DNA of 64,000 bases from Escherichia coli. Its GTDB lineage: Bacteria; Pseudomonadota; Gammaproteobacteria; Enterobacterales; Enterobacteriaceae. The translations under genes and the position numbers were made by a program. The DNA lies in the NCBI RefSeq assembly GCF_048403405.1, contig NZ_CP183129.1, one strand, 5' to 3'. The notes beneath the pieces were generated by a model. The model saw nothing but the letters and a program-made list of their open reading frames with translations. It ran no database searches and was not told the origin of the DNA. Shown here in pieces: positions 158 to 57,954 of this stretch (its first letter is position 1; each line of letters starts with the position of its first letter).

Positions 158-1198
158 ATGAGCGACAACATCCGTGTTGGGTTGATTGGGTATGGTTATG
201 CGAGCAAAACCTTCCATGCGCCCCTGATTGCGGGCACGCCCGGGCTGGAACTGGCGGTAATCTCCAGCAGCGATGAAACAAAAGTAAAAGCCGACTGGCC
301 AACGGTTACGGTTGTCTCTGAGCCGAAGCATCTGTTTAACGATCCCAACATAGACCTGATTGTCATTCCTACACCCAACGATACCCATTTCCCGTTAGCC
401 AAAGCGGCGCTTGAGGCGGGTAAACATGTGGTCGTTGATAAACCCTTTACCGTGACACTGTCACAAGCGCGAGAGCTGGAAGCGCTGGCAAAAAGCCTGG
501 GGCGTGTGCTGTCTGTATTCCATAACCGTCGCTGGGATAGCGATTTCCTGACGCTAAAAGGTTTGCTCGCGGAAGGCGTACTGGGTGAAGTTGCTTACTT
601 TGAGTCTCATTTTGACCGCTTCCGTCCGCAGGTGCGCGATCGTTGGCGTGAACAGGGCGGCCCTGGCAGCGGTATCTGGTACGATTTAGCACCGCATCTT
701 CTTGATCAGGCCATTACGCTATTTGGTTTACCGGTTAGCATGACGGTAGATTTGGCACAGTTACGGCCCGGAGCGCAGTCGACTGATTATTTCCACGCCA
801 TCTTGTCCTATCCGCAGCGGCGAGTCATTTTACACGGCACCATGCTGGCAGCCGCTGAGTCAGCACGTTATATCGTGCATGGATCCCGAGGCAGTTATGT
901 GAAATATGGCCTCGATCCACAGGAAGAACGTCTGAAAAATGGCGAGCGTCTGCCGCAGGAAGACTGGGGCTACGATATGCGTGATGGCGTACTTACCCGC
1001 GTGGAAGGTGAGGAACGTGTCGAAGAAACGCTGTTGACAGTACCAGGGAATTATCCGGCTTACTATGCGGCTATTCGTGATGCGTTAAATGGCGATGGTG
1101 AAAATCCGGTTCCGGCAAGTCAGGCAATCCAGGTAATGGAGTTGATTGAGCTGGGCATCGAATCCGCCAAACATCGCGCGACGCTGTGCCTTGCGTGA
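158..1198 (+). CDS. ydgJ: Gfo/Idh/MocA-family NAD(P)-dependent oxidoreductase YdgJ
   Basis: Supplied ORF 119..1198 contains the recalled 346-aa YdgJ from internal ATG at 158 (MSDNIRVGLIGYGYASK, Rossmann GxGxxG-like N-terminus); GAGAGG RBS upstream of 158. Confidence 0.9.
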   Translation: MSDNIRVGLIGYGYASKTFHAPLIAGTPGLELAVISSSDETKVKADWPTVTVVSEPKHLFNDPNIDLIVIPTPNDTHFPLAKAALEAGKHVVVDKPFTVTLSQARELEALAKSLGRVLSVFHNRRWDSDFLTLKGLLAEGVLGEVAYFESHFDRFRPQVRDRWREQGGPGSGIWYDLAPHLLDQAITLFGLPVSMTVDLAQLRPGAQSTDYFHAILSYPQRRVILHGTMLAAAESARYIVHGSRGSYVKYGLDPQEERLKNGERLPQEDWGYDMRDGVLTRVEGEERVEETLLTVPGNYPAYYAAIRDALNGDGENPVPASQAIQVMELIELGIESAKHRATLCLA

Positions 1199-1233
1199 AA
1201 AGAGGATGGTGCAATTAGCACCATCCATTTTTG

Positions 1234-2235
1234 TTACTTCGCAGCGACTTTTTCTCGCAGTGCGCGTTTTTCCTCTGCGCTGAGGAAAGCCATTTCCAGA
1301 CCATTAATCTGCGCCTGGCGGATTTGCTCGCGGGATAACCCAGCAGCCGGCGCGGCAACGGTATATTCGTGAATGATATCCACTCCCTGTACGCCGGGAT
1401 CGTCAGTGTTAATGCTGGCACGAATGCCATGCTCAAGGAACGTTTTCAGCGGATGTGCCGCCAGCTCTGCCACGGTGCTGGTCTGAATATTGGAGGTCAG
1501 ACAGGATTCAATACCAATTTGCTGCTCGGCGAGAAAATCCATCAGCGCCCGATCTTCAATGGCTTTTACGCCATGTCCAATACGTTCCGCCCCCAGTTCA
1601 CGAATCGCCTGCCAGATGCTTTCCGGCCCGGCAGCTTCGCCTGCATGGACGGTAATATGCCAGCCCGCATCACGCGCGCGGTTGAAGTGAGAAAGGAACA
1701 GACTTCCCGGGAAACCAAGTTCATCACCGGCTAAATCAAGTGCGGTAATCTGGTCACGATGGGCTAAAAAGGCCTCCAGCTCTTGCTGACAGGCAGCTTC
1801 ACCGAAGGTCCGGCTCATAATGCCGATAAGCTTCGCCTGCACACCAAAGGTACGGCAACCTTCACATACGCCATCGATCACCGCTTCGACAACACCCGCT
1901 ACAGGCAGCTGATGAGCCATTGCCATGTAGCCCGGTGAAAAACGCAGCTCGACATAGTGCAGGCCGTTACGGGATGCATCTTCAATGTTTTCAAATGCCA
2001 CGCGGCGACAGGCATCAAGAGAGGCGAGAACTTTAACGCCCCAGTCAAGTTTGGTCAGAAAGCTCACCAGATCGGGTTCGTTGGCAATGACCTGAACGTG
2101 GGGAATCAGTGTTGCCAGGGATTGTGCAGGAAGCGAGATATTATACTGGCGGCCAAGTTCAAGAATGGTCTGGGGACGAATGTTGCCATCAAGGTGGCGA
2201 TGGATATCAGTTAATGGCAGGGTGGTATCAATCAT
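1234..2235 (-). CDS. add: adenosine deaminase
   Basis: 333-aa translation with the HxH metal-binding N-terminus (DIHRHLDG) and full-length match to recalled E. coli Add. Confidence 0.95.
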
Positions 2236-2338
2236 GGTCGCACTCTTTTTCTGGATATAAAAGTGCGCACCATTATAAAAACAAAGCAGGGTAAAAATCC
2301 ACGATTGCGCAACGATTTTTTACGTTGCGCAATTGGGG

Positions 2339-3511
2339 TTAGCGAACAGCGCGGATGGCGTTAATTAATCCAGCCACACCTTTTTCCAGTTTCGAACGCG
2401 GGCACCCGGCATTGAGACGGACAAAACCACGACCTTCTTCACCGTAGGTATACCCCGGCATGATCGCGACCTTCTCTTGCTCGATAAGCGCTTTTTGCAA
2501 CGCGTTGTCGTCAATATTCAACGGACGTAGATCAATCCAGGCCAGATAAGTGGATTGCGGGATCTGCCAGTTGAGTTCAGGGAACGCGGCGTTCATTTTA
2601 TCTGCGATATACGTCAGGTTATCTTTCAGATAGACGCGTAAGGCATCCAGCCACGGCGCGCCTTGCTGATAGGCGGCGATATGGGCAGTTAACGCCAGTA
2701 CTGAAGGGGAAGAAAGGCCATCACGTCCTTTCAGTGCCGATAAATAGGCATCACGGCTGCTGCTATTTTCTATAATCCCGTAAGCACCGGTCAGGGCGGG
2801 AATATTGAAACTTTTCGATCCCGACGTTAGCAATGCCCAGTCTCCGCGCGCCACATTACTCCAGGGAATATGCGGCTGCTCGCCCCAAACCATATCCATA
2901 TGGATTTCATCGGAAATAACCCGCACACCATGACGCTCGCACAGGTCAGCCATGATCTCCAGCTCATCGCACGTCCACACTTTCCCGGTAGGATTCTGTG
3001 GGCTACACAGGAGCATAATTTTACATTCTGGTTTCGCCAACACGGCTTCCAGCTTGCCCATATCGCAAAACCAGCCGTCAGCCTGCTTCTCTAAAGCAAC
3101 GGGCATTACTGTGCGCTGGTTACCTTCAATGGCCTTGTAAAATGCGTCATAGGCGGGTGTGTGGATCACCACGCCTTCACCTGTTTCAGACCACTGACGA
3201 ATCAGTTCTGAAACCATATAGATAACAGAAGGGCCATACACCACCGATTGCGTATCAATTGCGGTGTAATGCTGGGTGGAAAACCAGTGGGCAATAGCCG
3301 CGAGAAACTCATCGTTTTTCCAGCGGCTGTAGCCAAACACGCCGTGCATCAGGCGCTGATTCAGCGCCTCGATAATGCAGGGGGCAGTGGCAAAATCCAT
3401 GTCTGAAATCGTGAACGGTAACAGGTCAGCAGTGCCGAAACGGTCAGCGACATAATCCCACTGCGTACACCATGTGCCATGACGATCCACGACCTTTGAA
3501 AAATCGAACAT
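2339..3511 (-). CDS. malY: PLP-dependent cystathionine beta-lyase / maltose regulon modulator MalY
   Basis: 390-aa translation recognised as MalY (aminotransferase class I/II fold); immediately downstream of malX as in the malXY operon. Confidence 0.95.
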   Translation of the reverse strand: MFDFSKVVDRHGTWCTQWDYVADRFGTADLLPFTISDMDFATAPCIIEALNQRLMHGVFGYSRWKNDEFLAAIAHWFSTQHYTAIDTQSVVYGPSVIYMVSELIRQWSETGEGVVIHTPAYDAFYKAIEGNQRTVMPVALEKQADGWFCDMGKLEAVLAKPECKIMLLCSPQNPTGKVWTCDELEIMADLCERHGVRVISDEIHMDMVWGEQPHIPWSNVARGDWALLTSGSKSFNIPALTGAYGIIENSSSRDAYLSALKGRDGLSSPSVLALTAHIAAYQQGAPWLDALRVYLKDNLTYIADKMNAAFPELNWQIPQSTYLAWIDLRPLNIDDNALQKALIEQEKVAIMPGYTYGEEGRGFVRLNAGCPRSKLEKGVAGLINAIRAVR

Positions 3512-3520
3512 ATCTTATCC

Positions 3521-6316
<2,796 letters not shown>

Positions 6317-55974: not shown

Positions 55975-56159
55975 TGTGCACATCCTTTTGGCATCAGACG
56001 TAAACGAGCCAGCATTGAAACAATGCATATTTTATTTAATAGCTCCCGTTCTTGTTTTCTCTTGTTAATGGCATCTTCAGTAAATACAGGGTTACTGATA
56101 GTGACACCAATTTCAAAACAACCTTCAGACGTATTAACGTTTGGTAATAACGTTTTCAT
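55971..56159 (-). CDS. dicB: cell-division inhibitor DicB
   Basis: 62-aa protein MKTLLPNVNTSEGCFEIGVTISNPVFTEDAINKRKQERELLNKICIVSMLARLRLMPKGCAQ, matching my memory of DicB; 4-nt overlap with ydfD. Confidence 0.9.
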   Translation of the reverse strand: MKTLLPNVNTSEGCFEIGVTISNPVFTEDAINKRKQERELLNKICIVSMLARLRLMPKGCAQ

Positions 56160-56333
56160 TATCGCGTCCTCAACAATGAATTTTGTGATGCAGTGCCTGG
56201 TGCCTCCAGGTGACGTTAACCAGTTAACAATTAACGTCGGATACAGAGAATCCACCCATAACACTGTTTTTGGTTTTAACTGTTCCGCGTGCGCTTAGCC
56301 GCATTCACCGCATCACAAAATTCACTTTAAAAA

Positions 56334-56386
56334 CGGCGGCAGAGCAGTCACGGAGTAAAACTGATACCGCCAAACGTCACCAGAAA
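56334..56386 (-). ncRNA. dicF: DicF small regulatory RNA
   Basis: Minus-strand sequence TTTCTGGTGACGTTTGGCGGTATCAGTTTTACTCCGTGACTGCTCTGCCGCC matches my memory of the 53-nt DicF; the exact 3' end is not determinable from sequence. Confidence 0.85.
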
Positions 56387-56645
56387 ATTGATAACAGAGG
56401 GCGTTGCAGCGGGGTTGTCACTTAAGCGTATGGTCAACCTGACAACTCGGTGTCCTCAACGGGGAAGGAATAACCCCGCCATACTTACCGCCGCGCCATT
56501 TTGCGGGTTGCCACAACCGGAAGCGCACGGTCGAATTAAATTTAACGACACCGTACAGTGAGACGAACTTCGCCGTGCGCTTTCGTGTTGTGTGCCTGCT
56601 TTTAACCACGTCAGGCGAGGTGGTATCCTTAAAATCACCACAGTT

Positions 56646-57221
56646 TTAAGGATTCATTAAGCAATGTCGCAACCACCAATAAATCCGCTTAAGAACATGA
56701 AAATTGATTACTGGTATAAAGCGCTTACAGTTGTTGGCGCTGCGTTGTTTGTCTTTAATGGAACGTCTTTTTTTGACAGATATCCCGTTGTTCCATTGGG
56801 TTTTTTGTCCTCCGGCATCTTTTTTATTGGTTTGGGGGAGTGGATTAATCACCCTCTCAAAGTGAGATTTATTGGTCCTGGAGTTTGGACTCGTGGATAT
56901 AATCGTTCTTCGTGCGCACTCGGTATCATCTTCGACATACTTGGTTGTTTCCTGATTGTTACAGGAGTCGTCAAGTTCTTCTGATGTAAAACCGCAAATG
57001 GGGCACGTAACGGGAATTTTGAAAAGCGTTTCTCCGGGTTCCAGAACAAAATTTTCTGCGGTCTGATTTTGCTTCTCATATTTGTGCTCCGCGTCATTGT
57101 GAGAGCACATTCTTATTCTGAGTGCCTGTTTAAACTCACTGAAGCTGAGAGCTTCTTCGCCTTCGGCAAGGCCTTCGAAGTATTCTTCGTAAGCCTTTTC
57201 CATGATTGTGTCGAAATCCAT
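56646..57221 (-). CDS. hypothetical early-left protein (ydfB/ydfC region)
   Basis: Start MDFDTIMEKAYEEYFEGL at 57221 with AGGTGAG RBS, 1 nt after the ydfA stop; contains a CPxC knuckle (PVTCPICGF). The C-terminal two-thirds is low-complexity N/K/R-rich and overlaps the plus-strand ORF, so the true 3' end is uncertain. Confidence 0.45.
   Translation of the reverse strand: MDFDTIMEKAYEEYFEGLAEGEEALSFSEFKQALRIRMCSHNDAEHKYEKQNQTAENFVLEPGETLFKIPVTCPICGFTSEELDDSCNNQETTKYVEDDTECARRTIISTSPNSRTNKSHFERVINPLPQTNKKDAGGQKTQWNNGISVKKRRSIKDKQRSANNCKRFIPVINFHVLKRIYWWLRHCLMNP
56664..56984 (+). CDS. candidate 106-aa three-helix membrane protein, antisense to the early-left operon
   Basis: ORF with three hydrophobic segments and basic residues in the loops, AAGGA about 11 nt upstream of the ATG, G-rich first codon positions. 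It is exactly codon-antisense to the 3' part of the minus-strand ORF 56646..57221, so only one of the two is likely to be real. Confidence 0.4.
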   Translation: MSQPPINPLKNMKIDYWYKALTVVGAALFVFNGTSFFDRYPVVPLGFLSSGIFFIGLGEWINHPLKVRFIGPGVWTRGYNRSSCALGIIFDILGCFLIVTGVVKFF

Positions 57222-57222
57222 A

Positions 57223-57378
57223 TCACTCACCTGAGTTTCTTTCCAGCCAGCGACGGGCACCATTTTCGGTTTTAAACGTTTTGCTTTTGGTATACGTCAT
57301 CGCGGTGAACGTGCCGTCCTGGTTGGGGAACACGCCACATACCAGAGATTCGCTGTTGCCAAGATCGATAGTATCCAT
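57223..57378 (-). CDS. ydfA: small prophage protein YdfA
   Basis: 51-aa protein MDTIDLGNSESLVCGVFPNQDGTFTAMTYTKSKTFKTENGARRWLERNSGE, matching my memory of K-12 YdfA; first gene after the left operator. Confidence 0.8.
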   Translation of the reverse strand: MDTIDLGNSESLVCGVFPNQDGTFTAMTYTKSKTFKTENGARRWLERNSGE

Positions 57379-57491
57379 GCTGACCTCATTTCCCCTTAAC
57401 GCCGGGGTCGCGGAACTGTTTGCTGAGAACACCGTGCGGTGTCTTGATGGAAAGTAATTTAGAATAACCTAACATGAGAGGCAAGTGTTTT

Positions 57492-57511
57492 TTGTTAGAT
57501 TGATCTAACAA
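57492..57511. promoter_or_regulatory. palindromic operator (GTTAGA-N4-TCTAAC) between dicA and ydfA (early-left promoter region)
   Basis: Seen in sequence: TTGTTAGAT-TG-ATCTAACAA, perfect 9-bp half-sites; same half-site as the operator in the dicA-dicC intergenic region. Confidence 0.65.
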
Positions 57512-57546
57512 AAAGAGTGGGCGCAACTAATCACTTGAAAAGAATG

Positions 57547-57954
57547 TTATTTTATTGATTTATTTTTACGCGCTTTAAGCATTTCTTCGAAGAGTTTGTT
57601 GAAGTTTTCTACTCTTGCGCGCATTTCAGACAGCAAGGCTTCCTGCTCGGAAGATGGAAGAGCATCGAATAATTCGATCAATTCTTTGTGGTTGGGAGTT
57701 AGCTCTGTTTCCACATGAAGTTCTTGTGCAGGCACTGGTGCCTTGTCTTCGTCACCAAACATTAGCCATGTAGGTGAGCACTTCAGAGCATCCGCTAAAG
57801 CAAACAATCGTTTTCCGACTGGCTGGGTTTCGTCTCTTTCCCATTGTGAAATTGTGACGTGAGCAACTCCAGCGAGGCGCGCAGCTTCTCGTTGTGTTAA
57901 GCGTAATTCTTTTCGTCGCGCCAGAACTCGCTGGCCTAGGGTTCTTGTATCCAT
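57547..57954 (-). CDS. dicA: DicA-like HTH_XRE immunity repressor (cI functional analogue)
   Basis: 135-aa protein with XRE-type HTH (LRLTQREAARLAGVAHVTISQWERDE); similar to, but clearly diverged from, my remembered K-12 DicA; divergent from the Cro-like gene. Confidence 0.85.
   Translation of the reverse strand: MDTRTLGQRVLARRKELRLTQREAARLAGVAHVTISQWERDETQPVGKRLFALADALKCSPTWLMFGDEDKAPVPAQELHVETELTPNHKELIELFDALPSSEQEALLSEMRARVENFNKLFEEMLKARKNKSIK

Follow-up and report, generated by a model that had tools for sequence, protein, structure and literature searches.

The window, the whole 64,000-nucleotide stretch of the Escherichia coli genome that we analysed, contains a Qin-like lambdoid prophage with its dicB operon on the minus strand (Table 1). 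The stop codon of ydfA, the first gene of this operon, overlaps the ribosome binding site of a long minus-strand ORF, and dicB, ydfD and a gene for an 823-aa exonuclease are further members. A shorter ORF lies wholly inside the minus-strand ORF, on the opposite strand. A palindrome, TTGTTAGATTGATCTAACAA, at 57488..57510 between the DicA-type repressor gene and ydfA is likely the operator of the dicB-operon promoter. Some prophages that are otherwise nearly the same have a RelE/ParE-type toxin-antitoxin pair inserted between their repressor gene and ydfA (L012 2516..2988, L015 1039..1512). Directly 3′ of DicF, a sub-threshold Rfam match to STnc100 (56127..56336, minus strand; 33.5 bits against a gathering score of 47) covers the dicB leader.

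Table 1 Features of the overlapping ORFs and the surrounding dicB operon
Feature	Position	Strand	Evidence or remark
DicA-type repressor gene	57547..57954	-	NF007257, 2.7e-67
dicB-operon promoter and operator	57433..57546		Position by analogy with K-12 (PMC10448788)
ydfA (DUF1391), first gene of the dicB operon	57223..57378	-	
Early-operon ORF, 191 aa: YdfB N-terminus, cassette-borne CPxCGF segment and 112-aa antisense tail	56646..57221	-	
YdfB-like N-terminal 34 codons, Qin backbone	57120..57221	-	PGAP, phrog_2061; RBS AGGTGAG 57226..57232
Mosaic cassette relative to K-12 Qin, 520 bp	56604..57123		blastn of the window against MG1655
Coding segment in the minus frame, EPGETLFKIPVTCPICGFT, adjoining the overlap	56985..57050	-	Conserved with the cassette
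Three-helix inner-membrane protein gene, 106 aa	56664..56984	+	Homologues, omega, AlphaFold2
Overlap tail of the minus ORF, stop-free, sequence unconstrained	56649..56984	-	
AAGGA Shine-Dalgarno-like site	56648..56652	+	aGGAt motif at 11-14 nt in other lineages
Conserved non-coding block 5′ of the plus gene	56594..56632	+	Alignment of 9 lineages
DicF sRNA, downstream in the same operon	56334..56385	-	Rfam RF00039, 72.5 bits

Homology of the window to MG1655 runs from 57492 to 57124 and then from 56603 to 56300. As the K-12 homology stops at both of its edges, the intervening segment is a cassette, which stands in place of the 3′ end of K-12 ydfB, ydfC and about 120 nt. The flanking stretch 57124..57492 is 93.5 % identical to K-12 at the DNA level. 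An earlier note on this DNA had assigned the ORFs to the ydfB/ydfC region, a label that no longer fits since ydfC is absent from the window. K-12 Qin provides the same operon context, and the minus ORF opens with 34 codons of YdfB; K-12 however lacks the cassette, and its YdfB, a protein of 42 aa ending in ...KQALSSSAKSNG, ends independently, only residues 1-34 matching the minus ORF. PGAP retains just these codons, as a partial ydfB pseudogene with its C-terminus missing. The cassette is shared by Rac-like, P22/lambda-like and Yersinia prophage backbones.

The minus ORF comprises 191 aa when read from the ydfB ATG at 57221, or 205 aa if read from 57263 (56646..57263), and the plus ORF starts with ATG. 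Listing of the ORFs bore out that both strands are open throughout the overlap in exactly opposed register. In the minus frame the plus stop codon (TGA, 56982-56984) reads TCA (Ser), which places plus codon positions 1, 2 and 3 opposite minus positions 3, 2 and 1, and the plus gene is free of TTA, CTA and TCA codons. Codon resampling gives a 107-codon antisense frame in this register a 2-5 % chance of being open, and 7.7 % of the 107-codon windows in long ORFs of these phage loci were open in an empirical control. A single open instance is therefore mildly unusual, and the excess over chance lies in its recurrence in diverged relatives. The two ORFs had been thought mutually exclusive, yet the antisense frame is open in at least eight diverged phage lineages and is contiguous with a minus-strand segment under purifying selection, and neither frame rules out the other. 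Both are open and carry translation signals, while purifying selection on the amino-acid sequence within the overlap is found for the plus frame only.

The plus ORF is clearly a genuine gene, encoding a conserved small membrane protein under strong purifying selection. Sixty homologues, with identities down to 34 % and all of about 100-110 aa, were found in Yersinia, Herminiimonas, Reinekea and metagenomes, and a profile search of the family returned 485 representatives (clusters) at E ≤ 1e-3. Two motifs are invariant, (D/N)YWYK (DYWYKA) and GEW(I/V)NHP (GLGEW-NHP), and the protein encoded here shares with the family its length, the three transmembrane helices and the residues Y16 W17 Y18 K19 and G58 E59 W60 N62 H63 P64. 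An AlphaFold2 model (pLDDT 83.5) has a short hairpin and helices at residues 17-32, 42-62 and 85-105, in keeping with the three-helix membrane protein first proposed from the sequence. Within-E. coli diversity was too low for dN/dS, and cross-lineage sets were therefore used for the per-frame comparison that the earlier note had called for. Partitioned in the manner of OLGenie in four clusters, omega was 0.10-0.18 for the plus frame with confidence intervals below 0.3, and 0.62-1.37 for the minus frame (0.62-0.85 as dNN/dNS, 0.77-1.37 as dSN/dSS) with all intervals including 1. Among deeply diverged members, differences at plus codon positions 1, 2 and 3 were 0.44, 0.31 and 0.63, the third being the most variable, a pattern that indicates coding in the plus frame. 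The low omega, the homologue family and the third-position variability together contradict the suggestion that the plus ORF might be a shadow frame. The AAGGA site described upstream of it is present 11 nt 5′ of the ATG; a supposed richness in G at first codon positions proved marginal, with G at 0.28 against 0.29 for T and 0.26 for A.

Searches for a function were less informative. A Pfam scan of the plus protein gave a best E value of 0.11 and no SieB; Pfam, NCBIfam, PHROGs and PADLOC placed neither ORF in a functional family; a fold search of the model in the PDB returned nothing at E < 0.1; and its structural neighbours in AFDB50 were exclusively uncharacterised homologues. The Rfam scan had no match inside the overlap. 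A type I toxin-antitoxin system was considered and rejected, as the protein has 106 aa and three helices against fewer than about 60 aa and a single transmembrane segment for such toxins, and its antisense partner is the operon mRNA and not an sRNA. The gene is, as had been noted, oriented against the early-left (dicB) operon, and it occupies the slot held by sieB in Rac. In Rac, lambda and P22 sieB likewise lies antisense to the early-left operon beside the immunity region: K-12 Rac sieB (plus strand) is located just 3′ of the DUF1391 gene ydaF and opposite racR-ydaG-ydaF...kilR, as the gene described here is 3′ of the DUF1391 gene ydfA and opposite the dicB operon. The proteins themselves differ, SieB having 162 aa and no sequence or Pfam relationship to the 106-aa three-helix protein. 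A role in superinfection exclusion or defence would thus be a guess from position, prompted by a slot antisense to the early operon and beside the immunity region.

The non-coding block upstream of the plus gene is nearly invariant in the nine aligned lineages, though their coding regions are only about 50-88 % identical at the protein level. It comprises TTAACC at 56602..56607 (-35), a 16-nt spacer and TGgTATCCT at 56621..56629 (extended -10), and from its consensus and conservation we infer that it is a putative extended -10 promoter of the plus gene's own. Within the block, GCCTG(N13)CAGGC forms an inverted repeat overlapping both the putative -35 and the spacer. In one lineage (L084) both arms are changed, to GCCGG/CCGGC, and the repeat could be an operator carried along by the cassette. 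An RNA-structure reading of the block was discarded, the fold of the minus-sense RNA showing no unusual stability (z = 0.82). A generic promoter and terminator scan near the plus gene gave nothing useful and did not list the block.

The region is present in 804 of 5426 complete E. coli genomes, in 783 of the 804 at ≥ 99 % identity, and in the isolated phage HannyBb, whose annotation has the minus ORF as a CDS. RefSeq leaves the plus gene unannotated in most of the 804 genomes. PGAP calls the gene only when the minus ORF is broken by an IS3, as in strain 550 (WP_127712993.1), and elsewhere calls neither ORF. Lineages with an open antisense frame carry the gene antisense within early operons, namely the dicB operon here, Rac-like prophages, where it replaces sieB between KilR and the repressor, and the cro-cII interval of mEp390 and L089. 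Further open contexts are P22/lambda-like backbones, beside cI, and Yersinia prophages. In a second clade the gene is part of the early-right region, with cro on one side and a cII-like gene of that operon on the other, and its antisense ORF is mEp390 gp39. From where pRE lies in lambda, the clade-2 plus gene is oriented toward cro and cI (L089 2959..3429, L112 2462..2917), and the clade-2 minus ORF ends 16-23 nt before the cII-like start, so the two may be translationally coupled. Public strand annotation is inconsistent: in Burkholderia phage Bcep176 the annotated gene, gp33 (L113 2366..2830), is on the strand of the membrane protein and is extended N-terminally by 45 codons, and the mEp390 entry names it as similar to gp39 despite the opposite strand.

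The closed lineages that we checked, Herminiimonas and Reinekea, are chromosomal, and chromosomal homologues have 4-17 antisense stops. A DUF5677 gene lies directly 3′ of the Herminiimonas family member (L114 5397..6179) and another a few kb away in the E. coli 55989 prophage (L002 7008..7101), a possible association. Locus L083 belongs to an Edwardsiella-like accessory island. Over 776..3666 it has the same ORF end, ...GWDLIKI.VICPICGFTSE*, twice, in both cases convergent with a gene for a small membrane protein; the two membrane proteins are of different families and an AbiH-like gene of 325 aa lies between them. The segment resembles a cargo or defence hotspot flanked by a duplicated gene end.

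The start of the minus ORF had been judged convincing and remains so, with AGGTGAG 4 nt 5′ of the ATG, an N-terminus of net charge -9 and a CPxC segment that is coding. About 20 codons before the overlap read PGE..F.IP..CP(I/V)CGF in every lineage of clade 1, third positions varying synonymously while I-P-x-x-C-P-(I/V)-C-G-F is kept. Differences by codon position in this flank numbered 303/238/439, and pN/pS was 0.52 against 1.21 and 0.89 in the shifted frames. Clade 2 (mEp390, L086-L111, Pantoea) has a different N-domain, LE..PGSV..D...G.VTLIGW, with differences of 745/596/1022 and a pN/pS of 0.61 against 1.27 and 1.00. By these measures the predicted minus flank is coding and under purifying selection in both clades. 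Start codons with Shine-Dalgarno-like sites are found 30-47 codons 5′ of the overlap in most lineages. The family phrog_35040, which has no known function, matches the minus ORF over its full length (positions 1-205, E = 7.4e-150) and was probably built from the same called ORF. A search with the L083 CPxCGF protein found one homologue, in Edwardsiella, indicating that the CPxCGF N-terminal partner is not a family of its own. In L077 (1020..1856), L079 (2692..3531) and L015 (1716..2531) the open minus frame extends from a ydfA-type ribosome binding site through the membrane gene and the promoter block into ydfC, for 271-280 codons.

Beyond this flank the minus ORF continues into the overlap as a tail of different character. 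The N/K/R-rich composition pointed out in the earlier note is confirmed (29 % N+K+R over 112 aa, net charge +9), and this low-complexity tail is, as judged from the comparisons, the hydropathic mirror of the membrane protein and devoid of detectable amino-acid constraint. A conserved positive charge was considered and rejected, charge ranging from -2 to +13 across lineages much as under synonymous resampling. Identity within the overlap is lower in the minus frame (about 65 % and about 38 %) than in the plus frame (84 % and 58 %, respectively). We looked for synonymous-site constraint in the overlap and found none, distant lineages using the same codon at conserved residues at a rate of 0.401 against 0.391 expected. 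Synonymous conservation in favour of the minus frame alone, which would have spoken against the plus gene, is therefore not seen, and the codon positions favour the plus frame. The absence of stops is the sole detectable constraint on the tail.

To assess stop-freedom we compared 23 clusters of the family, with at most 70 % identity between clusters, each taken as a lineage, against an expectation from local codon usage. Thirteen of the 23 have no antisense stop where 1.06 were expected, a P value of about 8.5e-17 that assumes independent lineages and depends on crude local codon tables drawn from ORF sets; independence is supported by the saturation of synonymous sites. Stop counts are bimodal, at either 0 or 4-17. 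All eight of the AT-rich enteric-phage lineages are open, each with a probability of being so of 0.003-0.03, as compared with 0.1-0.29 in high-GC lineages. Stops number 2-6 and 5-17 in the remaining antisense frames, hence TTA, CTA and TCA are avoided in-frame only and not as trinucleotides in general. Codon optimisation does not explain the avoidance either, as ATA, CCA and ACA occur at normal frequency and CTG is seldom used. Across the lineages compared, these counts show that enteric temperate phages keep the antisense frame stop-free while its predicted amino-acid sequence drifts. Single antisense stops occur in a few E. coli alleles (L012, L058, L076). In L083 the CPxCGF ORF ends two codons into the overlap and there are eight antisense stops, which indicates that the tail is dispensable in some settings.

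We lend roughly even credence to the reading that both ORFs are real and form one mobile cassette, pairing a membrane moron expressed in the lysogen with a read-through ORF of the early operon whose frame continuity is under selection. In the lysogen, the DicA-type repressor would silence the dicB operon and the membrane gene would then be transcribed from its own extended -10 promoter, with some membrane-level benefit to the lysogen. On derepression, transcription of the dicB operon would run head-on through the membrane gene, turning it off, and the uninterrupted minus ORF would keep ribosomes behind RNA polymerase across the convergent unit. Possible gains are shielding from Rho, passage of polymerase through collisions, and prevention of pairing with the plus mRNA and of cleavage by RNase III, such that DicF, DicB and the exonuclease genes could still be expressed. 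Translation itself, and not the tail peptide, would be what is selected. A more general proposal, which we put forward tentatively and hold at clearly less than even confidence, is that a read-through ORF lets temperate phages carry a convergent lysogen-expressed moron in an early operon, ribosome traverse being the sole selected property. If true, its genomic signature would be antisense stop avoidance without amino-acid constraint.

Certain observations sit uneasily with a simple anti-polarity account. Rac sieB, which differs from the plus gene in having seven antisense stops and no overlapping ORF, and the untranslated gaps of 260-480 nt that follow the minus ORF in clade 1 suggest that early operons tolerate untranslated stretches. 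Rac sieB also led us to discard antisense openness as a rule for all morons in this slot. A Rho loading site in the overlap was likewise rejected, the minus RNA having no rut-like excess of C over G there. Together with L083, these points leave a functional, sequence-insensitive tail as a serious rival, although we consider true dual coding unlikely. Under dual coding the hydrophilic tail of about 110 aa would be a functional part of the minus protein, for example by extending the CPxCGF or 'VTLIGW' N-domain with a disordered or nucleic-acid-binding region. The openness of the frame in at least eight lineages and the in-frame fusion of an N-domain to the tail in every mosaic are in its favour, as is Rac sieB itself, which shows that openness is no general need of the slot and so points to something specific to the cassette. 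Dual coding is opposed by the minus omega intervals that include 1, the lack of synonymous-site conservation at deep divergence, a charge and composition unbiased beyond the mirror of a membrane protein, the lower identity of the minus frame and the tail-less L083.

It is less probable still that the plus gene alone is functional and the minus ORF a shadow frame, arising from codon usage and shared ancestry and fused by chance to upstream coding sequence. This would accord with frame -1 generally having the fewest antisense stops, with the open control windows, with PGAP not calling the minus ORF, with the unconstrained tail and with the unremarkable probability of openness at high GC. It does not readily account for the uniformly open AT-rich enteric lineages at saturated synonymous sites, for bimodal stop counts that track context, or for a coding flank in the contiguous frame with conserved start signals. 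Doubtful to a slightly greater degree is a toxin/antidote-like or abortive-infection pair, in which a membrane effector would be controlled by the convergent CPxCGF (or GW) protein or by the antisense transcript. A small conserved domain in the minus frame invariably accompanies the membrane gene, the second CPICGFTSE ORF end of L083 is convergent with a different small membrane protein beside the AbiH-like gene, and Herminiimonas has its DUF5677 neighbour; against this, PADLOC, Pfam and NCBIfam gave no match, many family members stand alone and the N-domains differ between clades. We dismiss the reading implied by the HannyBb, mEp390 gp39 and phrog_35040 annotations, that the minus ORF alone is a gene and the plus ORF its shadow: gene callers favour the longer minus ORF and the P0061 cluster has 1798 members, but the codon-position pattern already refutes it, the plus omega is 0.1-0.2, and plus homologues of uniform length with invariant motifs exist where the antisense frame has 4-17 stops.

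The closest published analogue of the cassette is the antisense-overlapping pair olg1/gene 10 of Pseudomonas phage Fc02, both members of which have been shown experimentally to exclude superinfecting phage (PMC9936078). As here, the pair lies in the immunity region of a temperate phage; one member is on the lysogenic strand, and its partner comes second in the early lytic operon (PMC9936078). Fc02 is an unrelated, Mu/B3-like phage however, and both its products are proven functional proteins, whereas ours are known from sequence and the tail is unconstrained. Long ORFs antisense to established genes have also been described in E. coli O157:H7 (ano and others; PMC5960689, PMC9927249) and in P. 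aeruginosa (PMC8850804). They raise the same question, of a translated gene against a codon-usage artefact, and OLGenie-type tests are equally applicable to them. In those cases the embedded ORF is young, taxonomically restricted and argued to be under purifying selection; in the cassette openness persists across 40-50 % protein identity without amino-acid constraint, and the 'mother' gene is the short one. The published study of dicBF regulation does not treat the cassette region or Rho.

Most RefSeq annotations lack a conserved membrane-protein gene that about 15 % of complete E. coli genomes carry. The annotation pipeline appears to be defeated by the two overlapping ORFs, and phage annotators call the opposite strand. 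The gene adds an uncharacterised family at the classical exclusion or defence slot of lambdoid prophages. It also offers a case that can be tested comparatively, of an antisense frame that is kept open between deeply diverged lineages while the protein that it encodes can change freely. Such a case separates selection for translation from selection for the product and bears on the debate over bacterial 'shadow ORFs', and the cassette suggests how convergent morons and the expression of early operons are reconciled.
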